NCBI GenBank assembly: GCA_043803945.1
Contig: JAZDJN010000087.1
Coordinates: 256,001 to 320,000, forward strand
Length of the DNA stretch: 64,000 nt
Direction: 5' to 3'
Source of the DNA: a bacterium
Lineage (GTDB): Bacteria > Bacteroidota > Ignavibacteria > UBA10030
A program made the translations under genes and the position numbers. The notes below the pieces were generated by a model, which searched no databases, was not told where the DNA came from, and was given only the letters and a program-made list of their open reading frames with translations. Below are positions 11,626-64,000 of this stretch, piece after piece. Numbering within the stretch: position 1 is the first letter of the stretch; each line of letters starts with the position of its first letter.

Positions 11626-13083
11626 TTAGTGTTTTTCTAGCGCTGGAGTAGCTAATTCGATTTTTTCCTGGAGGCTTTCTTTAAATATTTTTGCATAGAT
11701 CGGGTCCCGGGGCACGCAGCCTGCAGGATATTGTCCCATCTCATTATGTTTGGAGCGCATCAGGTTTGTGCAATGACTGACGGCAATGCACACTTTCGAT
11801 GAATTCATTTTCCCCGTTGCAATGATATCTTTCGCATAATCGGGATACGCAATTGCACCGCGTCCTACGGCAACAATTCCGACACGGCCGCGGCGAATAT
11901 TCGATTCACCGGCATACGCAAGGTACTGCCGAAGCCAACTATAGCCCGTTCCAACCGTCACCACATCAGGATACGCTTTTTGGATTTGCTCGGTGATACG
12001 GAAATGACGATCAATGCCGAGCAACGGGTGTTCGGGTGTTGTATAACCGTCCATTGGAGCATGTTCAAACGGCCGCCCGAGGTGCATTGCATAGTACGGG
12101 CTTCCCATGGAAACGTTGATCAGGAGGACCCCATATTCTCTCATTATTCCCACGAGCTGAATCGGTTCGGCGAGATCTTCCAGCAATGGATTGTTTCGAT
12201 CAATGCCAAAATTGTATGGATACGGCAATGGATAAGCAATAGGTTTGCCTGCACCCGTAACCGGATCTTTTTCGTGCGGAATGCCGTCGTACGTATTAAT
12301 ACGAGAGGCTAGAATGAAGGCGCTGCCAACTTCATTGCGGGCTTTCCCAAGAACATTGCGGATGAAGCGGGTACGGTTTTCGAAGCTCCCTCCGTACTTC
12401 CCTTCGCGCGTACGGGCTCCCAACAATTCATTTAGGAGATAGGTGTGGCATTGTTTGATATCCACAAAATCGAAACCCATCTTTTGAACTTTGACAATCG
12501 CCTCGACGAAGAGGTCTTCCAACTTCTCCAACTCGTCGTCAGAAATAACCGGGTAGTCGGGCGGGATTGGGATTTTTTTCTTCCTATCAATATAAGTAAC
12601 ACAATCGACCTGAGGATGATGATACGCTATAATTGGTTTTCGGTAGCTATAGCGGCCCGAGTGGGTAAGCTGCAATCCAATGAGAAGATCACTGTCGGTG
12701 CTAAATTCATCTCGATGTGCACAACGAGAACGGCTCAGCAGCGCCTCGATTGACGACATATTTTCTTCATTCAGCAACAGCTGCCGCGAATTTGCCAGTC
12801 CTTCGGGGAGAATAGCCGTTGCTTCACCCCAGATAAGCTTTGCACCGCCCCTGCCAAATCGCTCCCAGCGACGGAACGTCAGTTCGTCCGGCTGTCCGTC
12901 AAGTGTACAATCGCACCCCTCCATCGGGTGAATACCGATCGCGTTACCGATGGTCCGATCGCCAAGTTTCACCGGCCTGGTGATCGATTCGAGCTTCTCT
13001 TCAAACGTGATGTCGACGCCAAGCCGTTCACACTCCTTGCGCAGATCATCGAGTGATTTATATGAATAGTATTTTTCCGACAA
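11626..13083 (-). CDS. NADH:flavin oxidoreductase / old yellow enzyme family
   Basis: HPMEGCD, GGAKLIWGEA, QLTHSGR, DIKQCHTYLL, YGGSFENRTRF; TTG start. Confidence 0.85.
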   Translation of the reverse strand: MSEKYYSYKSLDDLRKECERLGVDITFEEKLESITRPVKLGDRTIGNAIGIHPMEGCDCTLDGQPDELTFRRWERFGRGGAKLIWGEATAILPEGLANSRQLLLNEENMSSIEALLSRSRCAHRDEFSTDSDLLIGLQLTHSGRYSYRKPIIAYHHPQVDCVTYIDRKKKIPIPPDYPVISDDELEKLEDLFVEAIVKVQKMGFDFVDIKQCHTYLLNELLGARTREGKYGGSFENRTRFIRNVLGKARNEVGSAFILASRINTYDGIPHEKDPVTGAGKPIAYPLPYPYNFGIDRNNPLLEDLAEPIQLVGIMREYGVLLINVSMGSPYYAMHLGRPFEHAPMDGYTTPEHPLLGIDRHFRITEQIQKAYPDVVTVGTGYSWLRQYLAYAGESNIRRGRVGIVAVGRGAIAYPDYAKDIIATGKMNSSKVCIAVSHCTNLMRSKHNEMGQYPAGCVPRDPIYAKIFKESLQEKIELATPALEKH

Positions 13084-13109
13084 GGGGCCTCTGCAAGATG
13101 ATGGGAACG

Positions 13110-16123: not shown

Positions 16124-16903
16124 TTAAAGTTCTCCTGCATACCCGATACGTTTGGAAATCAACACGGCGTCGCGTTTCAGCACCACGACGAGGTCGGGAA
16201 TGATCTCTTTATTCCGGTTTACCCGGTCTGAGGGCAGTGCTGTCATGAGCGAGGCAGAAATTTTACCGGAGTGATCCCGAATGGGAACCGCAACAGCGCA
16301 GAGGTCAGCTTTGAATTCTGCATCGGCAACGGCATACCCCTGCAGCCGCACTTCCTCAAGACGCTTCTTCAGTTTCTGCATCGAGGTTACGGTTTTTGAT
16401 GTGTAGCGTTTTAATCCCTGCTGATCTGCCAGGCCCGCGAGCTCTTCTTCAGTATATTCCGACACCATAACCAGGCCTGTGGCAGTACAGTGAAAGGGCG
16501 AACGGTGCCCGAGCCTCGTGACCATTTTCCACACTTCCGGAGTATCGACATGATCAATAAGGATCACCTCGTTATGATCGAGGATGGCAAGATAGAAGCT
16601 CTCCCGTGTTTCATGGGCAAGGTTAAGCAGATGGGGATGAGCGATTGTCTTTAAATCGATTTTGGAAAGCGCCGCATTTCCCCATTCGAGCAATTTCATG
16701 CCGAGTGTAAACATCTTTCGCTCAGAGTCTTCGATAATGATAGAGTTCTGATGCAGTGTATACAAAATGCGGAACATGGTACTTTTGGGTACTTTGGTCT
16801 GCGATGCGAGCTGGGCCAGCGACATTCCCTGGGGAGCGTTGGCTAATAATTCCAGTACACGGATTGCGCGATCAAGGGCGGGGACAGTATAGTTGAGTGT
16901 CAT
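16124..16903 (-). CDS. IclR family transcriptional regulator
   Basis: VPALDRAIRVLELL N-terminal HTH; HCTATG; VRLQGYAV; CAVAVPI. Confidence 0.92.
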   Translation of the reverse strand: MTLNYTVPALDRAIRVLELLANAPQGMSLAQLASQTKVPKSTMFRILYTLHQNSIIIEDSERKMFTLGMKLLEWGNAALSKIDLKTIAHPHLLNLAHETRESFYLAILDHNEVILIDHVDTPEVWKMVTRLGHRSPFHCTATGLVMVSEYTEEELAGLADQQGLKRYTSKTVTSMQKLKKRLEEVRLQGYAVADAEFKADLCAVAVPIRDHSGKISASLMTALPSDRVNRNKEIIPDLVVVLKRDAVLISKRIGYAGEL

Positions 16904-16947
16904 TGTTATTTTGCTAATTGAATGGTGTTTAATTAATGTACGAAATT

Positions 16948-16976
16948 AGTATAAGAGAATTCTCACTATTTGTCAA
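16948..16976 (-). promoter_or_regulatory. Sigma70-type promoter upstream of iclR
   Basis: Minus strand TTGACA (16976-16971), 17-nt spacer, TATACT (16953-16948). Confidence 0.75.
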
Positions 16977-16980
16977 GAAA

Positions 16981-17859
16981 TCATTTGCCGGTGGATGTCG
17001 CTTCAGGTTCAACGTTTAGGATATTCGCCACCACCCGCTCCAGAAATTGGCGGCTCTCCTGAGCTGTCTGCTCGGTTGTATCTTCCAACACAATGCTGAT
17101 GCCCGGCTTTTGTTCAACGGCAAATTGCATCACCAGATCGTGCCGCAGCATTCCAAGACCTGCCCGTGTAAATTTGAATCGGCCGTTCTCGATGACGAAA
17201 TCTTTCGCATGAATGATCGCAATCCGCTCGCCGAAGAGTTCCAGCGATTCGCCGATAATCCTCTCCTGCTCGCGATAATTGTCGAGCGATAGCAGGTTCA
17301 CGGGATCGAAGACAACCTGCAGATTATTTGATGCGACGCTCTCCAGCATTCGCCTCATTTTCTGTGGTGTCGACAAGACGTGCGATGCGACCTGCTCGAT
17401 GCCGACAATGACGCTGAATCGTTCAGCCTCCGCGACAAGCTCTGCAATGCTCACAATCGATTGGTGAAAAGCGAAATCGCTGTGATTCTCGGGATGCGGT
17501 GAGTAGTCGGCGCTGACAGAGCCGGTTTCAAGCGCAACGAGTCCATTGCCAAAATCGCGAGCATAGCTGAACAGTGTGAGAAGTAACTGTCGCATCCCGG
17601 GATCAGGGTGAATTGGATTCACGTAACAGCCGAGCACAGCGATTTGGACACCACCTCTGTGAAAGGCCTGCCCGATTTCATGCGCAAGACCGGGGTTTAA
17701 GACGCCGGGTTTTACCGTGAGCCGGGTGATGGCCTTGCTAAGCGCAAGTTGTGTACAGTTGAAGTGTTGCGCAGAAATTTTTTCGGCGAACTCACCAGCT
17801 GACAGGCAGCCGAAATCGTGAGCACGAATGCCGATGCGAATAGGGAACGGTGAAATCAA
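16981..17859 (-). CDS. Sugar phosphate isomerase/epimerase (AP endonuclease 2 TIM barrel)
   Basis: IGIRAHDFG, LGCYVNPIHPD, ETGS, FDPVNLL, HAKDF; TTG start with GAGG upstream. Confidence 0.8.
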   Translation of the reverse strand: MISPFPIRIGIRAHDFGCLSAGEFAEKISAQHFNCTQLALSKAITRLTVKPGVLNPGLAHEIGQAFHRGGVQIAVLGCYVNPIHPDPGMRQLLLTLFSYARDFGNGLVALETGSVSADYSPHPENHSDFAFHQSIVSIAELVAEAERFSVIVGIEQVASHVLSTPQKMRRMLESVASNNLQVVFDPVNLLSLDNYREQERIIGESLELFGERIAIIHAKDFVIENGRFKFTRAGLGMLRHDLVMQFAVEQKPGISIVLEDTTEQTAQESRQFLERVVANILNVEPEATSTGK

Positions 17860-52265: not shown

Positions 52266-53981
52266 ATGAACCGAAGATTGATACCCCTTCTCTTTCTTCT
52301 TGTTGCATCCTTTAGTATTGCTGCTGCTCAACAAGATCTTCTGGCCGACATCCGAAATCTTTCTTCTGACGAAATAAAATTCGATGCCTTCAGGCTCGAT
52401 ACCGACCAGGAGGTGACTATCACCGGAACCGTTACCGGAGATCGTAACAGAAACGTCTATAACGATGTCTGGATTCTAAATACTCAAACCCGGGAAATTG
52501 TCTGGAAGTTGAAATATTCCAAGCGATCTTCGCGTTCCAGGGGATTAGTCGACTTTGACGATAAGCTCTCTCTGTCTAAGGGTGAATATGAAATCTATCT
52601 CTCAGCTTTTCCTTCCTATATTCAGGATGTTAACAACTTCGGTGATTTGATGGAACTGTTGACGGATAAGATTTTCCGCTCGAGTGATCGCGAGAGAAAC
52701 TACCGCCGCCTTGTCGTGACGGTGAAAGGAAGGGGTGTTCATTACGGTAACGAGGGGGTTGAGAAACTTCATGCCAGGCTTTGTGATGACGCCGTCGTCG
52801 CCATGACCAGGCAATCTCATGACGAGTACAGCAAACAGGGTTTCACGCTTGACAAACAGATGGAGTTGAATATCTACGCCATTGGAGAACTGCGCGACGA
52901 CGGGCAGTTCGATTTCGGCTGGATCATCAACACCAAAACGGGCGAACGTGTCTGGTCTATGGAGTACCGATCATCCAGCCATGCCGGCGGTGATAAGAAG
53001 AACAGGATGGTGAAGGAAACGATTACACTCCCGGCTGGATCCTACGCTGCACACTATGTCAGTGATGATTCCCATTCCTATGGCGATTGGAATGCGGCGC
53101 CACCGTTCGATCCGATGTTCTGGGGGTTGACCATTCACACAAAAGATCCGGCAATGAAAAAGTATACCCGCCTATTTGAATTCAATGCCTTTGAAGAAAA
53201 AAATGTCATTGCCAGCTTAACCCGTGTTCGCAGCGAGAAATTGGAATCGAAGGGGTTTACCCTGACCAAGCCCATGGATGTTCGCATCTATGCAATCGGG
53301 GAAGGATCCAACGACCGGATGGTTGATTACGGATGGATCGTCAACATGAAAACGCGTTCAAAGGTCTGGTCGATGGAGTATAACGAAACCACACATGCCG
53401 GCGGGGGCCAGAAAAACAGAATAGTCAATACCATTATCCATCTTGAGAAGGGAAGTTACATGGTGTACTATACCACGGACGACTCTCATGCCTACCGCGA
53501 TTGGAACACCGCCGCTCCGTACGATCCCGAACATTGGGGGATAACACTTTCTTCTGCCGACCCGGAATTTAATGCGACGAGTATCCGCCCGTATTCGGAG
53601 ACCGACGACCCGTCAATCCTTGCACGGCTTGTTGGTATTCGCGATGACGAGCGCCGCAAGCAATCCTTTAGCTTATCGAAGAAGAGCGATCTTCATCTCT
53701 ACGCTCTGGGTGAAGGGCGCGATGGCGACATGGTGGATTATGCATGGATTGAAGATGCCTCGACACGGAAAATTGTGTGGGAGATGACGTATCGTTCGAC
53801 TGAGCATGCTGGCGGGTCAAAAAAGAACCGTGTCTTCGATGGCACCATCACACTCCCCGCGGGCAAGTACATCCTCTTCTACGAATCGGATGGCTCGCAT
53901 TCATTCAACAACTGGAATGAAGACCCGCCTGACGATCCTTATCATTGGGGAGTAACGATTACACTCAAGAGGTCGGATTGA
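52266..53981 (+). CDS. Secreted protein with four tandem homologous beta-rich domains
   Basis: Signal peptide; repeats of F-L-K...IYA(I/L)GE...D(F/Y)(G/A)WI...VW-M-Y...HAGG--KNR...(D/G)SH---WN...P-DP--WG-T; first copy degenerate. Confidence 0.75.
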   Translation: MNRRLIPLLFLLVASFSIAAAQQDLLADIRNLSSDEIKFDAFRLDTDQEVTITGTVTGDRNRNVYNDVWILNTQTREIVWKLKYSKRSSRSRGLVDFDDKLSLSKGEYEIYLSAFPSYIQDVNNFGDLMELLTDKIFRSSDRERNYRRLVVTVKGRGVHYGNEGVEKLHARLCDDAVVAMTRQSHDEYSKQGFTLDKQMELNIYAIGELRDDGQFDFGWIINTKTGERVWSMEYRSSSHAGGDKKNRMVKETITLPAGSYAAHYVSDDSHSYGDWNAAPPFDPMFWGLTIHTKDPAMKKYTRLFEFNAFEEKNVIASLTRVRSEKLESKGFTLTKPMDVRIYAIGEGSNDRMVDYGWIVNMKTRSKVWSMEYNETTHAGGGQKNRIVNTIIHLEKGSYMVYYTTDDSHAYRDWNTAAPYDPEHWGITLSSADPEFNATSIRPYSETDDPSILARLVGIRDDERRKQSFSLSKKSDLHLYALGEGRDGDMVDYAWIEDASTRKIVWEMTYRSTEHAGGSKKNRVFDGTITLPAGKYILFYESDGSHSFNNWNEDPPDDPYHWGVTITLKRSD

Positions 53982-54008
53982 GAAAAAAGCGTTGACCTAG
54001 TCTAACGG

Positions 54009-54034
54009 CTGCTCGCTGATCACGGGCAGTTTTT
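54009..54034 (+). terminator. Rho-independent terminator
   Basis: ctgctcg-ctgatca-cgggcag followed by ttttt. Confidence 0.6.
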
Positions 54035-54075
54035 GTTATCTATAACACAAAGGGTTTTCTCTCTTTCTACATTAA

Positions 54076-56934
54076 TCATCCCACCACACACACTCCTAAC
54101 AATCGTATACGAGCTCCAACGGGATTCTCGAGGGATGTTTTTATCTGTGATAGGATAGCACCGATGGCACCTTCGTAGGATTGACGAATCTTGTCCCACG
54201 GAAAGGTGTTCTTGGAAAATTCATATGTTACATCTGATGACTTCTTCTCTAATCGATTGACTAACCACTCGTCCGGCAATACATGAGCATCACCGCTAGG
54301 ACTGACCCGTATCATTTTCAGTTCTCTATGTTGCTTGCCACCCTCTAGGTCAACAGTAACTAGTGTCGTGATAACAGTGTAAGGTTCTTGATCAACGTCT
54401 GTCCGATGGAAGAACGTTGTGTCTCCTGGAGTGATGAGTTCCTGGCCTTGAGCGAGAAGGGCATCAATTAAGGGATGACCCAATCCAAGAAGTTCTGCAG
54501 AGCGCTTTCTCATCGCAGTATTGCGGTCAAATGTAGCAAGTTGATATTTTGGCAAGACACTTGGATGTTTCTGTAATATTTTTGGCGTAATGATTTCGGA
54601 AAACTCTCCCCGGGGCAAGATGGAACCGCCCATGCGAAGTATTGCAGCTTCGGCAAACTGCCTTAGGTCGTCAAGCGAAAAACTCCCCTCAATTTTCAAA
54701 TAGTCTTGGAGATTAAATGTTGTTAAATCCATTGTCAGATTTTTTAATGCATCAATTGCTTGATATGCATTCCTCAACGCTTCTTCGATTTCTTTCGCTG
54801 TACGTTGGTAATCTGTATTAACAAGAGCATTCCGATACCATTCCAGATAGTGCGGAGCGGATCCCATATAGCCTAAGATCTCTGATCTAAAATCTTCTCT
54901 CGGTTCACCGGTGAGTTCATCAAGTTTACCAATCTGGGTGGCGATCTCTTTTAATTTATCATCCAGCATCAGGTAAATGTTTTCTTCTACCGTCCCCTCA
55001 GCAATGAGATTGTAAACCTGCACAGTATCTTTCTGTCCATAGCGGTGAATTCGACCAATGCGCTGCTCAACAGCCATTGGATTCCAGGGTAAGTCATAGT
55101 TGAAAAGAATATGGCCGATTTGGAGATTAATTCCCTCACCTCCGGCCGAGGTGCAAATGAGAAATTGTGCACCATTCTCCTCCCAAAACCGTTCTTTGGC
55201 TTCAATCTTATCGTCTAATGGACCGCCCTTGATGTGGGTTACTTTATCTGTTCCATAGATAGCCTGGAGTTTTTCTTCGAGGAAGAGCAGGGTTTCAACA
55301 TACTGCGTAAAGATGACAAACTTCTCATCTGGATTTTCTATGCGAATAGTATCAACTGCTCTTGTGAGAGTGTCAAATTTTCGATCTGTCCCGGAAGGAA
55401 CCAGATTAAGAAGGTTGGCTACTTTCGCGACTTCGTTTGGTATTGTCGCATCTGCATAAATTCCTTCATCGCCGTCTTCATCACCATCGAGCGACCACGA
55501 AGTTGTTTCATCTGGAGGAAGATAAGCTCGGCTAACTTTCTGACGGATCTGTGCAATAAACGTGTCGATATCGGCTTGTCTTGATGGAGTATTTGGTATC
55601 GCCTCAATTTCTGATGCAAGTTGACGCATTTCATCCTGCAACCGAAGGATCTCATCGGAGAGTTTAGCCGTAGAATGTCCTTTCCGACGCTTGTTTTCCA
55701 GTTCAAGCTGTTGTCGTATGAGAAGAACAAGAAGTCGTCGCCGGAGAGCTTGCCTGATAGCTCGCGTACTTGATGACATGATCTTTTGGAATGTTGTCAT
55801 CACAAAGCCAATGGCACGCTGTGCTGTTGTGGTTTTACCGCCATTTTCCCCGAGGCCTGCTCGTGTATAGCCCTCTTTTAAATACTCTGTAAGCTTGTCG
55901 TAAAAGACTTGCTCTCGCATAGCCAATTGGAAAGATTGTGTATGAACCTGGCGACGCATGAAGATAGGGTTACCATCTTTATCTGTTACATCACGCTTTG
56001 TCCGGCGTATCATCACCTTGTTTAAAAAGCCTCTATGGAGAGAAAGCGATTCCTCTGAATCGAAGAGGGTATCGTCGAGAAGCTGAATTAACGACCAAAA
56101 TTGAAAGCCATTGCCTTGATGAGGTGTTGCCGAGAGGAAGAAGAGATCTTTCGTATGATTCTTTATAGCCTCGGCAAATTTATAGTTCAACGTTGATTGA
56201 ATTTTCTTCCCATATCGAAGCCTCGTGAGATGATGAGCTTCATCGAACACAACAATATCCCACCGTGGTCCCCCTAAGAGACGTTCCATTCGCTGTATGC
56301 GCTTGAGGGCATCAATCGAAGCAATAACTCGATGGTGAGATTCCCACGAAGCAGGGGAGTGATCGGTAAAATCGATTCCGAGGATTTCAAAATCTAGCCT
56401 GAAAGCATCGCGAAGCTCACTCTGCCAGTTTTTGATGAGCCCCGCAGGAGTAATGATAAGAATTCGATTGGACTCCCTCCGTGTAATGAGTTCACGAAGG
56501 ATCATTCCCATTTCGATTGTTTTTCCCAATCCAACTTCGTCTCCGACCAGCAGGCGACGATGGGGCATCGAAACGACATCTCTTGTTATCAGTATTTGAT
56601 GGGGAAGCAGGTCGGTTCTACTGTTCGAAAGTTGCCCTCCGGCATTTTGCAGTGGAAGCTGAAATGATAGTTGTTTCAATAAAAAATCGATCGGTTTATC
56701 ATAATCCCCGATTTTCACCCGTTCCCATAAATCGGGAGCCGGCTCAAGACGTTCTATGGGGAAACTGTGAAGATGACGCCCCGTTCCATCTTCATACATA
56801 ACGTCAGCCTGGTAGCTTCCATAAATATCACTCACACGATAGACTTCCACGATGCCAAGATCTTCCCGGCCTCGAATACGTACTCTTTCGCCAACCTTTG
56901 GACGATAGAGAGTTTGATTATCTGTCAACTGCAT
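54076..56934 (-). CDS. SNF2/RapA-like SF2 helicase
   Basis: LLPHQ, GDEVGLGKT, FDEAHH, LSATPHQG, GEGINLQ, EQRIGRIHRYGQ; start reset to ATG 56934 after AGGAG because the tracked N-terminus is translated repeat. Confidence 0.9.
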   Translation of the reverse strand: MQLTDNQTLYRPKVGERVRIRGREDLGIVEVYRVSDIYGSYQADVMYEDGTGRHLHSFPIERLEPAPDLWERVKIGDYDKPIDFLLKQLSFQLPLQNAGGQLSNSRTDLLPHQILITRDVVSMPHRRLLVGDEVGLGKTIEMGMILRELITRRESNRILIITPAGLIKNWQSELRDAFRLDFEILGIDFTDHSPASWESHHRVIASIDALKRIQRMERLLGGPRWDIVVFDEAHHLTRLRYGKKIQSTLNYKFAEAIKNHTKDLFFLSATPHQGNGFQFWSLIQLLDDTLFDSEESLSLHRGFLNKVMIRRTKRDVTDKDGNPIFMRRQVHTQSFQLAMREQVFYDKLTEYLKEGYTRAGLGENGGKTTTAQRAIGFVMTTFQKIMSSSTRAIRQALRRRLLVLLIRQQLELENKRRKGHSTAKLSDEILRLQDEMRQLASEIEAIPNTPSRQADIDTFIAQIRQKVSRAYLPPDETTSWSLDGDEDGDEGIYADATIPNEVAKVANLLNLVPSGTDRKFDTLTRAVDTIRIENPDEKFVIFTQYVETLLFLEEKLQAIYGTDKVTHIKGGPLDDKIEAKERFWEENGAQFLICTSAGGEGINLQIGHILFNYDLPWNPMAVEQRIGRIHRYGQKDTVQVYNLIAEGTVEENIYLMLDDKLKEIATQIGKLDELTGEPREDFRSEILGYMGSAPHYLEWYRNALVNTDYQRTAKEIEEALRNAYQAIDALKNLTMDLTTFNLQDYLKIEGSFSLDDLRQFAEAAILRMGGSILPRGEFSEIITPKILQKHPSVLPKYQLATFDRNTAMRKRSAELLGLGHPLIDALLAQGQELITPGDTTFFHRTDVDQEPYTVITTLVTVDLEGGKQHRELKMIRVSPSGDAHVLPDEWLVNRLEKKSSDVTYEFSKNTFPWDKIRQSYEGAIGAILSQIKTSLENPVGARIRLLGVCVVG

Positions 56935-56947
56935 CTCCTGGATGATG

Positions 56948-57261
56948 GAACACTGATTACACTGATGCGACCGATTTTCACTGATGTGTGTTGATCGTGT
57001 TCTTTTCTGTGTTATCGGTGTTCTATAAAATTGGAACACTGATGACACCGATTCAACTGATTTTTACCGATCTGCCTGCCCGCCATGCCTTCGCGTTTTG
57101 TGCGTCCGCCATCTTTTTGGCGGAACCTTTTGGCGGGTGATCATCGTGTGTTTTTCTGTGTCATCTGTGTTCCATTCTTAAATCGGAACACCGATCACAC
57201 CGATGCAACTGATTTTCACAGATCTGTTTACATCGTGTGCTTTTCTGTGCTATCGGTGTTC
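56948..57261. repeat. 76-bp palindromic repeat units 1-3
   Basis: 56948-57023, 57034-57172 (76 + 63-nt insertion), 57186-57261; ends GAACAC(T/C)GAT...ATC(G/T)GTGTTC; spacers 10 and 13 nt. Confidence 0.9.
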
Positions 57262-57645
57262 TATTTCCTTGCGATCGTTTGTAAATATCTTCCGCCGTAT
57301 TTCAGGTTTCTTGCCAAAATTTAGCAGCAATCCGATTTCGATATTGGTTGCCTTGAGGTAGTTAATGAGTTGTGTTTCGTGTTCTTCAACCATTCCTTCG
57401 GCAGCCTTCAACTCCAATATCACCACATTATTAACAACAATATCGGCAAAGTAATCACCAACCAACTCTCCTCGATAATGGACTTTAATTGGTTGTTGAT
57501 TTTTCGCTACCAAACCTTCACGAGCGAGTTCTATGATCATTGACCGTTCATACACTTTTTCTAGAAATCCATATCCCAGTCTATTATAAACTTCATAGAA
57601 GCAGGCAATAATTTTCTCCGTCAATTCGTGGTGTAAATATTCCAT
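57250..57645 (-). CDS. GxxExxY protein (PD-(D/E)XK nuclease superfamily)
   Basis: LGYGFLEKVYE, ADIVV...ILELKA, QLINYLKAT...GLLLNFG; GGGAGG RBS. Confidence 0.92.
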   Translation of the reverse strand: MEYLHHELTEKIIACFYEVYNRLGYGFLEKVYERSMIIELAREGLVAKNQQPIKVHYRGELVGDYFADIVVNNVVILELKAAEGMVEEHETQLINYLKATNIEIGLLLNFGKKPEIRRKIFTNDRKEIEHR

Positions 57646-57668
57646 ACTTTCCTCCCTTAAAAGAAAGC

Positions 57669-58031
57669 GAACACTGATGACTTCAATCTAACTTATCTTT
57701 ATAGATCGGTGAACATCATGTGTTTTTCCGTGTCATCTGTGTTCTATTCTTAAATCGGAATACTGATAGCCCAGATGCAACCGATTTTCACCGATCTGTG
57801 TTGATCGTGTTCTTTTCTGTGCTATCTGTGTTCCATTTCTTTAAGATATAGAACACTGATGACACCGATGATACTGATTTTCACAGATCTGTGTACACCG
57901 TGTGCTTTTCTGTGTTATCGGTGTTCTATTTTTAGAGAACATTGATGACACTGAAAAATCTGATTTATACCGATCTGTGAAACTCATGTTCAATCTGTGT
58001 TATCAGCCTGCCTGCCGGCAGGCAGGTGTTC
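57669..58031. repeat. 76-bp palindromic repeat units 4-7
   Basis: 57669-57744, 57758-57833, 57851-57926, 57937-58031 (75 + 20-nt insertion); spacers 13, 17 and 10 nt. Confidence 0.9.
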
Positions 58032-58667
58032 TATCTTTCTGATAAGTTTATTGAGTTCTTTCTGAATCTCTTCTTTTATCGTCTTCCAGGTTACTTTCCA
58101 TACCATACGCGGCATGCGCACATTATCTGCATCATCAAAATAGCTGAGGCCGCGAAAAACAGGAAACAGGTCGGCTTCGGGAAACTTCTTGTTGTACATA
58201 CTCATCATGTGCTGCAATGAGCAATGTTTTTTTTCGAGAGCATACACGTCGATGAAGTCCTTTTTCGAGCCTCGGGATGCAATCGCAGAGAGTTTCATGC
58301 AGGCAAGATCGTCGAGGGATGCGAGTGAGCAGCCAACAGATTTCCACTCCACTAATGGACTTATTATGGTATATGGATACTCAATTATGGATATCCTGAC
58401 TCCACCGATCGTAGCATAGAACGTACCCTCATCGATATTCACGGCCAGGGGAATCATCCCTGCGCTTTTGATTTTGTTGGTCCATGAAGCCGGATCGCGA
58501 ATGCTGACCGGAGAGAACCAATCCAGATCAACAGACTTCCTATGACCAAGCATAAGCGCGATGGCTGTTCCGCCAGCGAGATAGAAACCGTGTCCTGAGA
58601 GGAATGGCCCGAGTCGTTTGAGAAGCTTGAACTGAGGTGAAGAAAGAGTCTCCTGGAAATATTTCAT
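57990..58667 (-). CDS. AbiEii/AbiGii-family nucleotidyltransferase toxin
   Basis: FYLAGGTAIALMLGHRKSVDLDWF, MKLSAIASRGSKKDFIDVY; start 58667 overlaps the upstream stop (ATGA). Confidence 0.88.
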   Translation of the reverse strand: MKYFQETLSSPQFKLLKRLGPFLSGHGFYLAGGTAIALMLGHRKSVDLDWFSPVSIRDPASWTNKIKSAGMIPLAVNIDEGTFYATIGGVRISIIEYPYTIISPLVEWKSVGCSLASLDDLACMKLSAIASRGSKKDFIDVYALEKKHCSLQHMMSMYNKKFPEADLFPVFRGLSYFDDADNVRMPRMVWKVTWKTIKEEIQKELNKLIRKIEHLPAGRQADNTD

Positions 58668-58999
58668 CGCTGTCCTCGTGCTTGCCATGGGTTAGAACTC
58701 TCCCCCGCTATCCAAACATCTACCTTATCCTTGGGCAGGTTCAATGCAAGTTGCCAGAACCGCAATCTCTTCGGATCCAGACCGGCACCCTGACGCTGGA
58801 GCATCCAACTTTTGAGCCAGGCGTTGCCTGTGGTTGCAATGAGCCACTTCACGGAATCCCATCCGCCCGCCTCAAGAACCTTCCGAATAATCAACTCAGA
58901 ATCTTGCTGCCAGGAGAGCGATTTCTTTGGATATTCCCAAAAGAGATCAAGAACATGTTTGGGGATTTTTACACGTTTTCGGATTAGAGTATTGTTCAT
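58664..58999 (-). CDS. DUF6922-like putative antitoxin
   Basis: LFWEY...L...DSELIIRKVLEAG...WL...LRFWQL pattern; directly upstream of the AbiEii gene; GGAG RBS before ATG 58999. Confidence 0.7.
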   Translation of the reverse strand: MNNTLIRKRVKIPKHVLDLFWEYPKKSLSWQQDSELIIRKVLEAGGWDSVKWLIATTGNAWLKSWMLQRQGAGLDPKRLRFWQLALNLPKDKVDVWIAGESSNPWQARGQR

Positions 59000-59019
59000 A
59001 AATCTCCGATCATTGAATA

Positions 59020-59176
59020 GCACACCCGCCTGCGTGCCTTCGGAGGGCGGGCAGATGACACCGAAAAAATTGATTTACACCCGCCATAAAGAACGGCGGG
59101 CAAGCTGATCTGCCTGCTCGCCATGCCTTACCTTTTGGCGAGTGAGTATCGTGTCCAATCAGTGTCATCAGTGTTC
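59020..59176. repeat. Repeat unit 8 with three GC-rich hairpin insertions
   Basis: Removing 59025-59051, 59080-59104 and 59113-59142 leaves a 75-nt unit aligned with units 1-7. Confidence 0.8.
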
Positions 59177-59674
59177 TAAAATATCGTTCGGTGAGTATAA
59201 AATGATGCCGCGCACGTTAGACAATTGTCGATCAGCACTGGCTATAGCCTGGATACGTAAGCGATCTGCAATCGCAATGAACAGAGCATCGTTGGTCAGC
59301 AGTCCATACTCTCGTTGAAGTCTCAGTGCAGCAGGAAAATCTTCAGCCACAAGAGACTCAAACTTGAACCCACTCGCAAGTAATCCCTTAACTATATCAG
59401 AATACCGATTCATAAGACGAACTCGATCGGGGCGCTCTGAAAGAGATCTGTCAGGATTCCCTCCAGTCGTCCATGCATTGTCCCGTGCTTCGACCATCAT
59501 CAACCTATGCATTACCTCCGCAAGTTGTTGGAGCCCAACTATTCCGATCACATCCCTTTCAGCGCAGCGCCGAAGAAGTTTTGTACATTGTTCGGACCTA
59601 TGAAGAACTCCATAGACAAGAACATTTGCATCCAGGAGGACAATATCAGACTTTTTGATTTCGTTGAGATTCAT
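59168..59674 (-). CDS. PIN-domain (VapC-like) ribonuclease toxin
   Basis: VLLDANVLVY, LAEV, GLLTNDALFIA, IASAD. Confidence 0.88.
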   Translation of the reverse strand: MNLNEIKKSDIVLLDANVLVYGVLHRSEQCTKLLRRCAERDVIGIVGLQQLAEVMHRLMMVEARDNAWTTGGNPDRSLSERPDRVRLMNRYSDIVKGLLASGFKFESLVAEDFPAALRLQREYGLLTNDALFIAIADRLRIQAIASADRQLSNVRGIILYSPNDILEH

Positions 59675-59943
59675 TGTTCGTAGTAATCCTCCTCCATTAT
59701 TTCCCTTAAGTCATCAGTTGAGATGTTGAACTTAATAGCAAGGAGGGATTCAAGCGCTTTCAATCGTAACTCCCTACCGAGTGATTCTTCCTGATCATAC
59801 TTGAGCACTGCTTCTTCAATAATTGTGCTGATCGGCTTACCGTCCCTGATTGAACGTTGTTTCAACTTATCAACAATACCTTTATCAAGGATCGTGCCAA
59901 TTTTAACTTTGGATCGTTCGGCAGTATCTCTCTTTGTTTGCAT
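59671..59943 (-). CDS. Ribbon-helix-helix antitoxin (VapB-like)
   Basis: KVKIGTILDKGIVDKLKQRS...ISTIIEEAVLKY; acidic C-terminus; 4-nt overlap with the PIN gene. Confidence 0.75.
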   Translation of the reverse strand: MQTKRDTAERSKVKIGTILDKGIVDKLKQRSIRDGKPISTIIEEAVLKYDQEESLGRELRLKALESLLAIKFNISTDDLREIMEEDYYEQ

Positions 59944-59953
59944 GACTTACTCC

Positions 59954-60928
59954 TTAATTTGAATATTGTAGTTCTATGTCTGGTGTCAACATCTCCATTA
60001 ACGACATTCCGCCATGACGAAATATTTTGCTTGCGCTAGATCCTTGTGGTCTGTTTTTAATACGCCCCCTCAGCATAGCGAGTCGTTTGTGAGTAAGAAT
60101 TTGGAGTTCTGGGTAAGTCAAATTTAAGTCTTCATTCTCCTCGAAGATCCGAAACCGATTGTTATTAATGACATCAAGAGCTTTATCTGATTTCAACTCG
60201 GATTCATATCCGGCATGGAGATATACATATCCATGATCGCTCGTTATAATGATTCGATAATCACGGGGAATACTTAATACGATGTTTTTCCAGGCAACAT
60301 CAAATTGTTTCATAATGGCATCGAAGTGGCCAGAGGACTTTGCTTCGAAGTTCATATAGGTGCCATCTGGAAAACTCGACCAAAGGAGCAGGGGTGAGTC
60401 TGTATTTGGAAATTCATAATGACGAATTAGAGTGTCGTAATGACGGGCGATAATTTGTCTATCCTTGAATTCCTTTCGAGTTCTAAGTTGCGATGGTCCA
60501 ATTCTCTTTCCCAAAAGACGTTGATCGATATATGAGACGGTATCACTTGGCAGGGCAGCGTAACCATATCGGATTGAAGCTATTGAGAAATTAGTTTTTA
60601 ATGCAAGTATTTCAAGAAGCGGAAGTTCCCTTATAGAAACACCATCAAATACCACGATGGCAGTTTTAGGAGACTGAAGTTCATCTAAAAGTGATGGTGA
60701 TGATTCAGATGCAGCTACAATTTCATCGTAGATTCCAGTGGCGGCATTCAAAATGAGATCTTCGACAGCTTTTATTTTCTTTTCTCCCGATTCCAGGTAC
60801 TCTTGTGAATCGAAGTACTCAAAGCGTTCTTTCGACCATACCTCCTGAACGAGCCATTTCTCTAAAGATGGCAATCGCTGTCCACTGGAATAGAGAATAT
60901 CATAGATATTTCGAATACTTGAATTCAT
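59954..60928 (-). CDS. Minimal PglZ-like alkaline-phosphatase-superfamily protein
   Basis: VVFDGVSIRE, ALPSDT, IIITSDHGY, RHGGMSLMEMLTP. Confidence 0.8.
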   Translation of the reverse strand: MNSSIRNIYDILYSSGQRLPSLEKWLVQEVWSKERFEYFDSQEYLESGEKKIKAVEDLILNAATGIYDEIVAASESSPSLLDELQSPKTAIVVFDGVSIRELPLLEILALKTNFSIASIRYGYAALPSDTVSYIDQRLLGKRIGPSQLRTRKEFKDRQIIARHYDTLIRHYEFPNTDSPLLLWSSFPDGTYMNFEAKSSGHFDAIMKQFDVAWKNIVLSIPRDYRIIITSDHGYVYLHAGYESELKSDKALDVINNNRFRIFEENEDLNLTYPELQILTHKRLAMLRGRIKNRPQGSSASKIFRHGGMSLMEMLTPDIELQYSN

Positions 60929-60929
60929 C

Positions 60930-63560
60930 TTAATGAACGGCCTCTTCTTTTTGTGATATTCCTTTTAGTTCTGCTTTGTAAAGTGCTTGTGTAAAAGAAG
61001 GTAGTTGTTCAACGAACTCTTCTACTTGTGCCTTGTTGTATTGGCCGGTTTTCTCAATTAGTATTTCAGCGTTCAAATTAGCGATTCCAGTAAGCGAGCC
61101 TCTAATCGCTGAGGGGTACGTGCTTAATTCTGTGCTTGATTGTTGAATAAACACAGTAAATCGGATCCACCGAGCGGCAGGATCAATCAATTCACCTAAC
61201 TTCTCTGCAACTTTTTGTCGCAGGTTATTGATGGATCCTTCATTTGTTGTCTGAATGCCAAACTCGCTTGCTGTTTCTTCCACTATTGCTGGAGGCATGG
61301 TGGTTTCAGGAATCGTTGAATCTATTACTCCTGGTTGCGGAACAACTGGTGGTTGTCCAATGGGAAGTTGAGGAGATCCACCCTCCTCCACAAATGGCTC
61401 TACCACGAGAACATCATTCCATTCAGTTCCTGCAAAAGCCGGTGTACTGCCACAGTATCTTGTTCGAGCATTCTTCAAACCAACGCGCTTGTCCTTACAC
61501 AATTGTGAGAATGCTTGAGTTAGAATAGTTTCAGCCGTGAAGACGGGGAATCCAAGAGTTTTTTTATAGGTCGCCTTGATTTCACCAACCGTCCTATCAA
61601 AAATGAGTTTACCTGGTTCCTCTTGCAGACAATCAATAATATGATCCTCAAATCTTTGACGTGGATAAATATTTTGTTGCAGTTGTGTTAGTACCTCTGT
61701 CCGATTTGTGGCGGAGCCAAGTGGTTCAAGTTCAAATTCAAGCGTTTGTTCTCCGTTTGCTTTTGTGTGGATTGACACATAATACAGACCGGCCTTCTTA
61801 AAGACCTCATCGATATATCGAACGTTCTCAATGCTGATTTTCTCGTATTGTCGTTTTCTCTCAGCATCGTTAGTGTGGCCGGCAAGATTTGAAGCTGACA
61901 TTGCGAGCTGCGCCCATTTTACTAAATCAGGATTATCCAGGGCGTTAAATGATTCGGATTTTGGCTCAAGAAGAATTATTTGATTGCGTATTTCAGCGCC
62001 ATGATAAACAAAGGCTTTCTCTGTCTTGTCTAATCGGTGGGGTGCGAGAACCCAGCGGAGGCTATTTTTATCCAGTTGGGAAAGAGAATTTCGTGCTTGT
62101 GAAGAATCTCTAAAAATAACTGCATTTGAATCACCAAATACATTTACCCGCCAACGAGTTAACGAAAACTCTCGTGCATCGTTAGGATCGATCTTCAGGG
62201 CACCATACTCCACCTTAGCATACGGTTTTTCTTGAGTGTCGAAGAAATAAGATTCTTCTGAGCGCTGGAAGTAAGCTCCAAGTTTATCAAGCGCTTGCAA
62301 TGTCGCTTGGAAGACATTAAAATCGTCTCCTGGTTTTATGACCTGACGTTGAAGCTCTGCTTCCTTTATTCCTCTAATCGAACCACTACCAGTAAGAGTC
62401 GCACTAAGCGTAGCTGAGACAACTTCAGTAGAAAATGGCAAGGAATGCAGATCTCTTAAATCTGCTTGTGCGCAATTTAAGATGTGTTGCCCGGGATCGA
62501 GATCTGTGAGTCGATTACGAATACCGTTATCGTTGATATCGATGTGAGCTGCGGTAATGATATCTGTCTTTTTATAAGTGTTACGAACGACATTTGCCAG
62601 AAGCCCAAGTGGTCCTCTGTTACCTTGAAAATTTTGTCTAAGGACTCTATGAAGAAACATATTGAGTAGCTCTGGAGAAAATGGGAAACTACTTCTCAAT
62701 TGATCGGAATATTTTTCATCTACAACAATGCCAACCTTCTTCCATTGATTGACATAACTGGAGATGACATTATCGACTTTCGCCCGATCGACGGAATTGG
62801 CATTTGAAAAAAGGCGATGGAGGATCACATTTTGTCGATCACGGGGTTCAGTGAACTTCACATTTATAGGACCAACTCGTTTTAAGGTATCTCCCGGTTC
62901 TTTGGTTGCTTCGTATACCGATGCGAACATAGTAACGGAAGTTGTATCAGTACGATTTGCTTCCTCGCTCAATTGCTGAAGAAAAAGGATATTCTGCTTT
63001 TGGTTAAAATCATGTGGCATACTTTGAATACCCATCTCGAGCTCATCGAGAATGAGGATTAATTTTTTACCCGATAAGGCAATTCTGAGCTCATCGAGAT
63101 TTGGTACTTTCTTTGGATCAATCTTTGAGGCCAATCCAAGTTTATCGAACACCATCCACCAAATCGAATCGAGAGGAAAATCTGTAAACTTATGAATTAT
63201 AACCGTGACGTCTTCCGGGAGATTGCAGGTTAGATTATGTTTAGCAAGCCAAGTTCTGGCAATTGATGGACTGGTGAAGAGGTGATAGATTAACAATTCG
63301 AGATGTGACTTACCGCTTCCTTTGAATCCTTCCAGAAGAAATAATCCTGGTGTTCGTTCACTCGAATTGAACCGCTGGTGTAAATTTTCCAATACTATCT
63401 TGACGTCAGCGGTTGGATAGGTGATATCGAAGAAGTCTTGGGGTCGGGACTCAATAGATTTCTTCTTTTGATCCCTTAGATTCTCAAGATCGATAACTCC
63501 TTCGATTCCATCTTTTTTGAGGACTTCTGGGCGGGGGGTAATGATGTCGGAAAGGCTCAT
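60930..63560 (-). CDS. DUF499 family (BrxC/PglY-related) AAA+ ATPase
   Basis: PRPEVL...FFDITYPT, Walker A GFKGSGKSH, Walker B LILILDE, FPFSPEL, FQGNRGPLGLLA. Confidence 0.85.
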   Translation of the reverse strand: MSLSDIITPRPEVLKKDGIEGVIDLENLRDQKKKSIESRPQDFFDITYPTADVKIVLENLHQRFNSSERTPGLFLLEGFKGSGKSHLELLIYHLFTSPSIARTWLAKHNLTCNLPEDVTVIIHKFTDFPLDSIWWMVFDKLGLASKIDPKKVPNLDELRIALSGKKLILILDELEMGIQSMPHDFNQKQNILFLQQLSEEANRTDTTSVTMFASVYEATKEPGDTLKRVGPINVKFTEPRDRQNVILHRLFSNANSVDRAKVDNVISSYVNQWKKVGIVVDEKYSDQLRSSFPFSPELLNMFLHRVLRQNFQGNRGPLGLLANVVRNTYKKTDIITAAHIDINDNGIRNRLTDLDPGQHILNCAQADLRDLHSLPFSTEVVSATLSATLTGSGSIRGIKEAELQRQVIKPGDDFNVFQATLQALDKLGAYFQRSEESYFFDTQEKPYAKVEYGALKIDPNDAREFSLTRWRVNVFGDSNAVIFRDSSQARNSLSQLDKNSLRWVLAPHRLDKTEKAFVYHGAEIRNQIILLEPKSESFNALDNPDLVKWAQLAMSASNLAGHTNDAERKRQYEKISIENVRYIDEVFKKAGLYYVSIHTKANGEQTLEFELEPLGSATNRTEVLTQLQQNIYPRQRFEDHIIDCLQEEPGKLIFDRTVGEIKATYKKTLGFPVFTAETILTQAFSQLCKDKRVGLKNARTRYCGSTPAFAGTEWNDVLVVEPFVEEGGSPQLPIGQPPVVPQPGVIDSTIPETTMPPAIVEETASEFGIQTTNEGSINNLRQKVAEKLGELIDPAARWIRFTVFIQQSSTELSTYPSAIRGSLTGIANLNAEILIEKTGQYNKAQVEEFVEQLPSFTQALYKAELKGISQKEEAVH

Positions 63561-63585
63561 TGTTTTCTCCTTATTTCCTAATTCA

Positions 63586-63646
63586 AATATAAAAGAAATA
63601 AGGAATTATATCAAGACGCTTTCAAGAATTCTTGAAATGTCTTGAT
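63586..63646 (-). promoter_or_regulatory. Candidate island promoter with an overlapping 37-bp palindrome
   Basis: TTGATA (63614-63609), 17 nt, TATATT (63591-63586); atcaagacgctttcaagaattcttgaaatgtcttgat (63610-63646). Confidence 0.55.
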
Positions 63647-63701
63647 TTATCCGTGTAAACCGCAACCCTTTTATAGATTAGGGACCGTTATAAATAACAC
63701 A

Positions 63702-63735
63702 AAGGGTTGTCTCTCTTGTTCGAGGGACAACCCTT
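63702..63735 (-). terminator. Terminator hairpin of the S41 peptidase-like gene
   Basis: aagggttgtctctc-ttgttc-gagggacaaccctt, 25 nt after the stop codon. Confidence 0.7.
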
Positions 63736-63760
63736 CTTGCTCTACTCTTAATGAATGGGG

Positions 63761-64000
63761 CTATTTCAAGTTGGCAAACTTCGCCGCTTCCGGCAACAGG
63801 CTTAGCGCTTTCTGGAACTGCGTATCAACCTGCAGCATGACAGGATACCAGCCGTCGTTTGCCCAGAAACTATGGGCGATATGCCCTTTGATTCTTGTCT
63901 TGATATAGGCAATATCCTTTTCAAATTCACTCTCGTTGATTGTGATCTCTTTCTTCTTGATAAAGGCTCTGAACTCTGCAAGGATCTTCTCGTCAACGGT
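63761..64000 (-). CDS. C-terminal end of a probable S41 (CtpA-like) carboxyl-terminal protease, partial
   Basis: Manual translation: ...ILAEFRAFIKKKEITINESEFEKDIAYIKTRIKGHIAHSFWANDGWYPVMLQVDTQFQKALSLLPEAAKFANLK*; resembles FCB-group S41 tails; catalytic domain is outside the window. Confidence 0.55.
   Translation of the reverse strand, partial: TVDEKILAEFRAFIKKKEITINESEFEKDIAYIKTRIKGHIAHSFWANDGWYPVMLQVDTQFQKALSLLPEAAKFANLK

Follow-up and report, generated by a model that had tools for sequence, protein, structure and literature searches.

A DUF499-PglZ-SNF2 defence island of the Type-3 BR kind that has probably lost its methyltransferase gene through deletion between palindromic repeats

Gene content and borders of the island

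The window analysed here, a stretch of 64,000 nucleotides, carries a defence island of ~9.6 kb on the minus strand at positions 54035-63716. It is bordered by a 30-nt direct repeat without strand, whose upstream copy (63687..63716) overlaps a hairpin that follows the ctp gene, in its 3' half, and whose downstream copy (54035..54064) is preceded, 12 nt before, by the stop codon of the SNF2 helicase gene; the repeat has two matches in the window versus none expected from 100 shuffles. The 20 kb examined beyond base 64000 begin with genes for an S41 Ctp protease, a TPR protein and a histidine kinase, which are housekeeping functions, and for a PLP decarboxylase. Of 19 related genomes examined, three (L131, L132 and L135, among the closest) have no island, and the two flanking genes lie 0.3-0.7 kb apart there. 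Repeats, housekeeping genes and empty sites confirm what was first noted, that the island starts and stops inside the window. We propose that the island was acquired horizontally and inserted between the gene of the Ctp protease and one of 571 aa, with the 30-nt direct repeat at its borders.

The first gene (60930..63560, minus strand) encodes an 876-aa AAA+ ATPase of the DUF499 kind (HmaC/BrxC-like), which matches Pfam DUF499 above the cut-off (3e-07; 29.1 bits versus a cut-off of 23), PADLOC HmaC (3.9e-16) and NCBIfam DUF499_antiphage (2.3e-16, far below that model's cut-off); no PADLOC BrxC model matched, the profiles matched being DUF499 and HmaC. A single base separates this frame from that of a stand-alone PglZ of 324 aa with an alkaline-phosphatase fold (59954..60928, minus strand), and in the relatives the small PglZ always lies directly downstream of the DUF499 ATPase. 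The PglZ assignment draws on PADLOC, on the labels of homologues and on the predicted fold: the Pfam scan gave no match at E <= 0.01, PADLOC PglZ matched the C-terminal third only (2.3e-07), a sequence search against solved structures returned chance-level matches only (E >= 0.35), and a precomputed label of PF08665 PglZ is attached to many of the 197 homologues. The AlphaFold model (pLDDT 91) finds as its best solved Foldseek match the PglZ domain of PorX (E 2.4e-09), and it also matches the PglZ of an Acinetobacter BREX complex (9zn5_B, 6.7e-07), with ENPP enzymes ranking next. The motifs D95-G96, P127-S128, D231-H232-G233 and H305-G306 are invariant across 61 aligned homologues; the originally predicted pair of an 876-aa ATPase and, after 1 nt, a PglZ with intact core motifs (63560..60930 and 60928..59954) was thus confirmed.

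Five further genes on the minus strand follow, which we regard as putative accessory genes lodged between core genes. They encode a 90-aa RHH-like protein (59671..59943) paired with a 168-aa PIN-domain protein (59168..59674; PIN, 1.7e-09), a 119-aa DUF6922 protein (58664..59023; DUF6922, 6.8e-09) that partners a predicted AbiEii-family nucleotidyltransferase toxin of 232 aa (57990..58688; AbiEii, 1.7e-12), and a 131-aa GxxExxY/PDDEXK_3 protein (57250..57645; PDDEXK_3, 1.3e-41; TIGR04256 GxxExxY, 2.1e-39). These frames and families match those first proposed, with the RHH label standing via homologues only: the 90-aa protein has no Pfam match of its own and is 63% identical to its homologue in the related locus L005, and the homologue in L012 matches RHH_1 at 1.2e-04. 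Of 80 related loci, 47 have a PIN homologue after PglZ. The DUF6922 gene overlaps the start of the AbiEii gene, and the two would constitute an AbiE-type TA pair of toxin gene and small upstream partner. Both the RHH-PIN and the DUF6922-AbiEii modules are also found in relatives with a methyltransferase.

The last gene encodes a SNF2 helicase (54076..56934, minus strand) of 952 aa from the ATG at 56934; the open frame 57048..54076 would give 990 aa from a GTG at 57048, which lies inside repeats. Its Pfam matches are SNF2-rel_dom, Helicase_C, ResIII and related helicase families only, with no nuclease family in the scan, so the claim of a 952-aa helicase without a nuclease domain holds from the first ATG. 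In PADLOC it matches HmaA at 1.5e-96, the match ending at position 849 of the 1176 of the model, and the BrxHI/BrxHII models at 1.7e-95 and 2e-84.

Loss of the methyltransferase and ~146-aa genes

Methyltransferase families were found on none of the island ORFs scanned with Pfam and PADLOC, tblastn of the methyltransferases of two relatives against the whole window gave no match at E <= 1e-3, and the motif [DNS]PP[YFWH] is absent from all six frames of 54000-63750, as expected from the prediction that no SAM-binding or DPPY-type enzyme is encoded in the island. A methyltransferase remnant hidden in the gaps was rejected on the same tblastn and motif searches, and a methylase just past the window edge on the genes identified at the start of the 20 kb beyond base 64000. 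The assembly is 100% complete by marker genes, and its sole DUF1156 methyltransferase, a protein of 1011 aa on contig C48, is part of a distinct Hma system that is itself complete, and is 29-38% identical to the L005 methyltransferase over partial stretches. Apart from that distinct system, searches with the L005 proteins or PF06634 revealed the missing genes on no other contig; PF01555 has 19 matches genome-wide, and apart from that of the C48 enzyme these fall in frames of 237-669 aa that do not match DUF1156. A second gene of the relatives, of ~146 aa, has no match in the window, and its 148-aa product in L005 has none in the whole genome at E <= 0.1.

The genome survey covered the best 80 of 144 loci, 53 of which have the small PglZ together with SNF2. 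A methyltransferase lies between the two at >= 80% coverage in 50 of these 53, the exceptions being two loci with a partial one (L025 and L084) and one with none (L056); its start is already visible in 21 of the 27 genome loci cut by contig ends. Among 25 metagenome loci it is present in all six complete ones, and its start in seven of those that are cut. A near full-length methyltransferase is kept in 56 of 59 complete relatives, genome and metagenome loci together, and the window is the only surveyed locus with three whole core genes and no methyltransferase trace. The ~1000-aa proteins of the relatives match Pfam DUF1156 and N6_N4_Mtase and PADLOC HmaB. The ~146-aa protein of the relatives is modelled at pLDDT 92, with weak AAA+/RecA-like matches only (Foldseek E >= 0.037, VIA Z <= 4.3). 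In L084 the methyltransferase is broken at half length and the 148-aa gene is unmatched, and the DUF499, PglZ and SNF2 frames are open. Within the same order the small PglZ occurs in five of 201 genomes, this one included; the nearest, 75% identical, apparently is that of L005, its position lying inside the L005 contig range.

L005 is sister to the window in a concatenated tree (support 1.0), and its gene order is AbiEii, methyltransferase, GxxExxY, 148-aa gene, SNF2; the GxxExxY gene lies between the methyltransferase and the ~146-aa gene in L109 as well. In L005 units of an ~88-bp palindromic repeat bracket the methyltransferase (12923-13177 and 16200-16545) and the 148-aa gene (16939-17021 and 17501-17592), and in L109 both genes are likewise bracketed by the ~88-bp repeat. 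The window holds repeat arrays only at both sites, neither with a strand: four units at 57663..58012, where the relatives have their ~1000-aa DUF1156 methyltransferase, and ~3.5 units at 56943..57266, the site of their ~146-aa, iSTAND-like gene. The arrays were found by repeat search and profile search; Tandem Repeats Finder alone, which reported five small rows, missed them. Rfam gave no match on 53500-64000 at E <= 0.1, and the ~88-bp repeat is therefore not a described RNA family. Since both genes have this repeat on either side in L005 and L109 and its arrays fill the corresponding sites here, the arrays can be read as deletion scars of a repeat-mediated loss, in keeping with the original suggestion that the methyltransferase had been displaced by the repeat array; the exact crossover is not placeable because the window copies are only 61-87% identical to each other. 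Comparison with the relatives shows that both genes were lost in this lineage through deletion between repeat copies.

The DUF499, PglZ and SNF2 frames are open over their full length and keep 81 of 81, 33 of 33 and 198 of 200 family-invariant residues, respectively; the corresponding counts in L005, taken as a control, are 81 of 82, 33 of 33 and 198 of 200. Tajima relative-rate tests with four outgroups were not significant for PglZ and SNF2 and borderline for DUF499, in which the window has 82 unique changes versus 60 in L005 (p 0.065; 0.035 to 0.28 depending on the outgroup). The window has a terminal branch of length 0.200, L005 one of 0.167. Because dS is saturated when the window is compared with its closest relatives, dN/dS values (0.04-0.10) refer to the pair L108 and L109 only. 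The original prediction had named two marks of a decayed remnant, namely a methyltransferase between PglZ and SNF2 in close homologous loci and relaxed selection on this copy; the former is what we find, and relaxed selection on the core genes was not seen. From the undamaged core genes it follows that either the deletion is recent or the core is still useful, and the intact core fits continued selection as well as recent deletion.

Relation to described systems

The Type-3 BR systems of PMC12839542 (Rakesh & Krishnan, NAR 2026) are described there as a DUF499 ATPase, an N6-methyltransferase, a nuclease-less helicase and a stand-alone active PglZ; the paper reports this PglZ in all 569 Type-3 BR taxa and iSTAND in 82%, and names N-terminal TUDOR and inactive REase domains in the helicase. 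The methyltransferase is one of three core parts of every BR system. The island is like these systems in its co-oriented operon, its DUF499-type AAA+ ATPase followed by a ~324-aa stand-alone PglZ as a separate core gene with the predicted metal-binding site intact (D95, S128, D231-H232, H305), and its SNF2 helicase without nuclease fusion in a BrxHII-like arrangement; the match extends to the relatives, which add a DUF1156 N6-methyltransferase and a small P-loop-like gene. The island differs in having repeat arrays in place of the methyltransferase and the iSTAND-position gene, and in its lodged RHH-PIN, DUF6922-AbiEii and GxxExxY genes. With no DUF1156 N6-adenine methyltransferase at the locus, and no match to the ~146-aa gene, the candidate iSTAND, it is an incomplete member by descent. 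The caution that the DUF499 core might not be new was justified, this being the published Type-3 BR system with the stand-alone PglZ as hallmark. A term search for methyltransferase-less or orphan loci found nothing in the main text of that paper, and its supplementary neighbourhoods may list other incomplete Type-3 BR loci. In the literature found there is no experimentally tested Type-3 BR system.

Hma comprises the helicase HmaA, the methylase HmaB and the ATPase HmaC (PADLOC, Payne et al. 2021, PMC8565338). Defence by the Halomonas Hma system is reported to depend on the HmaA nuclease domain (PMC11232893), and genes are reported lodged between core genes in 62.7% of 1,485 Hma systems (10.1101/2024.01.29.577857). 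HmaC and HmaA are the best PADLOC matches of the island ATPase and helicase, and the lodged genes are typical of Hma. The island differs from Hma in lacking HmaB, and with it the full HmaA-HmaB-HmaC set, in lacking a nuclease domain on the helicase, and in possessing a PglZ, which Hma lacks.

BREX types 1-6 (Goldfarb et al. 2015; summarised in PMC12839542) combine PglZ with a BrxC-kind ATPase, with a BrxHII SNF2 helicase in type 3. The island is like BREX in its BrxC/DUF499-kind ATPase and PglZ fold and like type 3 in its BrxHII-type helicase, but its PglZ is a bare 324-aa domain compared with BREX PglZ profiles of roughly 740-860 residues. BrxA, BrxB, BrxL, PglX and BrxP (PAPS reductase) gave no match on any island ORF scanned, so the BREX set of PglZ, BrxC and PglX (or BrxP in type 4) plus accessory genes is not present.

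In MANTIS (Gao_RL, a Type-2 BR system; bioRxiv 10.64898/2026.09.23.753747), deletion of the methylase is reported to be non-toxic and to abolish restriction; in the literature found, gene-by-gene knockouts among BR relatives exist for MANTIS only. A DUF499 ATPase and the helicase family are common to MANTIS and the island, whereas the DUF1156-type methyltransferase is present in MANTIS only, and its described effector is a PLD nuclease-helicase with a different small partner and no PglZ.

Interpretation and alternatives

We consider it probable that the locus is a Type-3, DUF499-centred BR island related to Hma, which lost its methyltransferase and ~146-aa gene by repeat-mediated deletion and is non-toxic but restriction-dead; most likely, then, we are dealing with the crippled remains of a known system and not with a novel type. 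In the ancestor, AbiEii was followed by a ~1000-aa DUF1156 N6-adenine methyltransferase, and the helicase was preceded by a ~146-aa P-loop-like gene. Both were removed by deletion between copies of the ~88-bp palindromic repeat, which in this island lineage occupies the spaces between genes; the event would be recent when set against a protein divergence of 20% from the sister. Of the three remaining core parts, the DUF499 ATPase, the stand-alone PglZ and the BrxHII-like SNF2 helicase, the effector would be PglZ, which is predicted to be catalytically intact. The methyltransferase of such systems would carry the target-recognition domain and be needed for restriction as well as self-marking, so that its loss should leave a system that neither harms the cell nor restricts. 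We infer a loss of restriction by analogy with the MANTIS methylase deletion, that is, from a Type-2 BR system whose effector is a PLD nuclease-helicase and not from a PglZ-based system of Type 3. The lodged TA-type modules may still act on their own.

The original prediction had offered a methylation-independent variant with the TA toxins as effectors, in which the methyltransferase-less set works without self-marking, the core sensing or attacking foreign DNA itself or triggering the lodged PIN or AbiEii toxins. All three core and five lodged genes are open, the catalytic and family-invariant residues checked are kept (198 of 200 for SNF2), PglZ and SNF2 show no rate acceleration, and L084 likewise combines a broken half-length methyltransferase and no 148-aa match with an open core. 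We nevertheless regard this reading as unlikely, and the variant with TA effectors is not supported: the window is a single such locus set beside 59 complete relatives, 56 of them with a near full-length enzyme, the sister locus has the methyltransferase and the deletion scars are visible in the window, and the RHH-PIN and DUF6922-AbiEii modules co-occur with the methyltransferase elsewhere. Restriction needs the methyltransferase in the MANTIS report, and in BREX it is stated generally to need all six proteins (BrxC paper, PMC13326643). It is similarly improbable, perhaps slightly more so, that a Type-3 BR core without methyltransferase and iSTAND is held under selection and still defends without self-marking, for example through a non-methylation DNA feature or a switch-on of PIN or AbiEii; if true, L084 with its broken methyltransferase would be a second step toward methyltransferase-less defence.

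A methyltransferase encoded elsewhere, either the DUF1156 HmaB of C48 or another N6/N4 methylase, might act in trans, given the second, complete Hma-type system and the many PF01555 matches of this genome. The low and partial identity of the C48 enzyme to the sister methyltransferase, however, speaks against it, a shared complex is unlikely because the DUF499 ATPases of the island and C48 are only 21% identical across 372 residues, the remaining PF01555 frames lack DUF1156, and the 148-aa partner is absent from the genome too; we hold this to be the least probable of the explanations. That the deletion is artefactual, through an assembler jump between arrays or a shorter form assembled from a mixed sample, is very unlikely. 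Both missing segments are repeat-flanked in the relatives, a setting in which assemblies can skip sequence, but repeat copies 61-87% alike are too divergent for k-mer graph collapse, neither missing gene is on any contig of the assembly, and the 381-kb contig is continuous through the island.

As a crippled Type-3 BR island, the locus does not extend the range of known defences, the system type being already in print. It would instead represent a natural knockout of a PglZ-based BR system, in which the methylase is cleanly lost, the ATPase, PglZ and helicase are intact and the cell is alive. Such a knockout fits a methylase that is also the targeting subunit, as known from experiment for MANTIS only, and whose loss disarms but does not kill. 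It also points to a decay route for defence islands, namely deletion between small palindromic repeats that colonise intergenic spaces. Together with its methylase-bearing sister, the island would make a ready pair with which a Type-3 BR system could be put to experiment for the first time.

Gene content of the island and its published counterpart

Eight open frames, all on the minus strand, lie within window positions 54076-63560. The 876-aa frame matches Pfam DUF499 above cut-off and PADLOC HmaC (3.9e-16). The 324-aa frame, 1 base downstream of it, gave no match in a Pfam scan at E <= 0.01 and a weak PADLOC PglZ match (2.3e-07) confined to the C-terminal third. Its family counts at least 197 proteins, almost all of them ~320 aa long, and D95-G96, P127-S128, D231-H232-G233 and H305-G306 are invariant among 61 aligned members; the AlphaFold model of the 324-aa protein (pLDDT 91) has its leading matches in the PglZ domain of PorX (E 2.4e-09) and in the PglZ of an Acinetobacter BREX complex (E 6.7e-07), with ENPP enzymes ranking behind. 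The lodged genes encode a 90-aa protein with no family match of its own (its homologue in the related locus L012 matches RHH_1), PIN (168 aa), DUF6922 (119 aa), AbiEii (232 aa) and PDDEXK_3/GxxExxY (131 aa) proteins. The SNF2 helicase matches helicase families only, no nuclease family being found in the family scan, and its PADLOC HmaA match stops at model position 849 of 1176. The frames, the family matches and the PglZ motifs and fold bear out the gene content of the original prediction, as does the absence of a methyltransferase (MTase) from the island: no MTase family matches any island ORF scanned, tblastn with the MTases of two relatives finds no match anywhere in the window, and the motif [DNS]PP[YFWH] is absent from every frame of 54000-63750.

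The prediction of a new methylase-less system is not supported by the relatives, which were surveyed as the best 80 of 144 genome loci encoding the small PglZ. In this set, a DUF499 gene lies directly upstream of PglZ wherever the contig permits, and a SNF2 helicase 51-82% identical to that of the window lies 4-8 kb downstream. The interval between PglZ and SNF2 encodes a ~1000-aa protein matching Pfam DUF1156 and N6_N4_Mtase and PADLOC HmaB, then a ~146-aa protein immediately before the helicase. PglZ and SNF2 are both present in 53 of the 80 loci; an MTase at >= 80% coverage stands between them in 50 of these, a partial one in two (L025 and L084) and none in one (L056). Among the 27 genome loci cut by a contig end, the MTase start is visible in 21, the other six being L034, L054, L057, L061, L069 and L074. 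Six of 25 metagenome loci contain PglZ and SNF2, all six with an MTase; of the 19 cut ones, seven show an MTase start and 12, for the most part short contigs, give no MTase match. Among the 12 is L127, in which ~1.8 kb follows the PIN gene.

Three DUF499-centred BREX-related (BR) types are defined by Rakesh & Krishnan (PMC12839542), where BR systems are equated with Hma. Type-3 BR, recorded there in 569 taxa, is described as comprising an ATPase, an N6-MTase and a BrxHII-like helicase that no longer has its nuclease; according to the same description, every taxon encodes a stand-alone active PglZ and 82% encode iSTAND. The relatives match this published description point by point, and the window matches it minus the MTase and the small gene; the system type is already published. 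The ~146-aa protein is likely the iSTAND of that description, judging from its position and weak P-loop-like fold matches.

In 47 of the 80 loci (L005-L084) the stretch directly after the small PglZ contains a PIN gene, accompanied by an RHH-like gene in 38; this PIN gene appears to be a standard accessory in one clade of the system rather than a chance toxin-antitoxin insertion. DUF6922-AbiEii occurs in 5/80 loci and GxxExxY in 1/80, as well as in L109 of the metagenome set. MANTIS (Type-2 BR) operons are reported to carry an Arc/CopG-type repressor in some cases (bioRxiv 10.64898/2026.09.23.753747), and lodged genes are reported in 62.7% of 1,485 Hma systems (10.1101/2024.01.29.577857).

Palindromic repeats at the sites of the missing genes

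The closest comparison is the sister locus L005 (Ignavibacteriota, same family), which groups with the window in the concatenated tree with support 1.0. Its lodged genes follow the window order with two genes more: RHH, PIN, DUF6922, AbiEii, MTase (1028 aa), GxxExxY, a 148-aa gene and SNF2. The DNA alignment is collinear to the end of AbiEii, where the window skips to the L005 region past the MTase, covers GxxExxY and skips again to just before SNF2. Arrays of a ~88-bp unit lie at both jumps, with four units at the first (57663-58012) and ~3.5 units at the second (56943-57266), and these are the repeat array of the original suggestion, whose reading of an MTase displaced by the array is supported. 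The palindromic repeat has a further window site at 59054-59081; its units all form long hairpins (z -3.8 to -6.0), and Rfam has no matching family.

In L005, a profile built from the window units places copies of the repeat at either side of the MTase (12923-13177 and 16200-16545) and at either side of the 148-aa gene (16939-17021 and 17501-17592). L109 shows the same flanking, and L107, L108 and L113 have a single copy just before the MTase. Because collinearity breaks at the arrays and the same repeat flanks these genes in L005 and L109, the simplest account is that two deletions between flanking repeat copies removed the MTase and the ~146-aa gene.

The repeat occupies intergenic spaces of the island lineage in several genomes (extent in L005, 10963-17592). 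Within the window's genome it accounts for 48 strand hits spread over 13 contigs (C65, C72, C82, C16 and others); contig C65 holds 10 of them, together with several matches to N6_N4 methylase, some of which contain internal stops.

Acquisition of the island

A 30-nt direct repeat stands at both island ends, 54035-54064 and 63687-63716; it matches twice in the window and not once in 100 shuffles. Past base 64000 the contig carries the Ctp protease, a TPR protein, a histidine kinase and further housekeeping genes; together with the repeat pair, these back the placement of both island ends inside the window. The span is 9.6 kb, with no integrase within it, and the upstream repeat copy overlaps the hairpin after ctp. 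On the other side lies a plus-strand gene (52266-53981) for a 571-aa protein with sub-threshold Pfam matches only (WDGH, DUF6786); tblastn shows repeated similarity within it, and relatives conserve it beside ctp.

In 3 of 19 related genomes whose ctp locus was examined (L131, L132 and L135, which rank among the closest), 0.3-0.7 kb separates the 571-aa gene from ctp and the island is absent. G+C is 0.40-0.46 in the island versus ~0.48-0.52 across 10 kb at its low-coordinate flank, and a search of 201 genomes from the same order finds the small PglZ in just 5. The direct repeat, the island-free relatives, the G+C and this distribution identify the island as a horizontally acquired cassette.

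Remaining genes and proposed function

All island frames are open. The residues invariant in 33-34 other family members are kept at 81/81 positions in DUF499, 33/33 in PglZ and 198/200 in SNF2, with 81/82, 33/33 and 198/200 in L005. Relative-rate tests with four outgroups reached no significance for PglZ or SNF2; for DUF499 the result was borderline. By these two tests the three core genes show no decay; dS is saturated, beyond the range of a dN/dS estimate for the window branch. On these sequence comparisons the deletion may be recent or the remaining genes may still be selected; the present data fit both.

Methylase damage has occurred elsewhere. In the Deltaproteobacteria locus L084 (11734-13429) the methylase is split into 229 aa and 383 aa, about half its length, with the DUF499, PglZ and SNF2 frames open and no match to the ~146-aa protein; it is a second and independent example of a damaged methylase beside an otherwise intact core. 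Three other loci preserve the system in decayed form: L056 (9742-14322) keeps PglZ and a shortened helicase, with DUF499 almost all lost and the methylase absent, the PglZ of L025 (10001-17869) has 15 in-frame stops, and L128 (186-676) joins the beginning of DUF499 to the end of PglZ.

A methylase acting in trans is possible but less likely. Marker genes put the assembly at 100% completeness, and its single DUF1156 MTase lies on contig C48, where it is part of a separate, complete Hma/Type-1 BR-like system (G000:C48:72391-85468; L099 4391-17468, minus strand). This second system consists of a 1155-aa SNF2 helicase with a NOV_C nuclease-like end, the 1011-aa methylase and a 931-aa DUF499 ATPase; lodged in it are a 504-aa cytidine-deaminase and HATPase_c_4 protein and an M78 peptidase/DUF4411 pair. 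The C48 MTase shares 29-38% identity with that of L005 over partial stretches, the two ATPases of the genome are 21% identical, and the 148-aa protein of L005 has no match in the genome; the lost MTase and 148-aa gene are replaced by nothing there. An assembly artefact is likewise possible but less likely.

A working methylation-independent variant, to which the intact frames could belong, is also possible but less probable. Our literature search found no experimentally tested Type-3 BR system. In MANTIS, as reported in bioRxiv 10.64898/2026.09.23.753747, knockout of the methylase gene is non-toxic despite absent methylation, and restriction is lost on deletion of any one of the ATPase, the small partner and the methylase, because target recognition resides in the methylase. 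By analogy, the window's island would have lost self-marking and targeting alike, so that it would be tolerated by the cell yet unable to restrict; the RHH-PIN and DUF6922-AbiEii pairs may retain an activity of their own.
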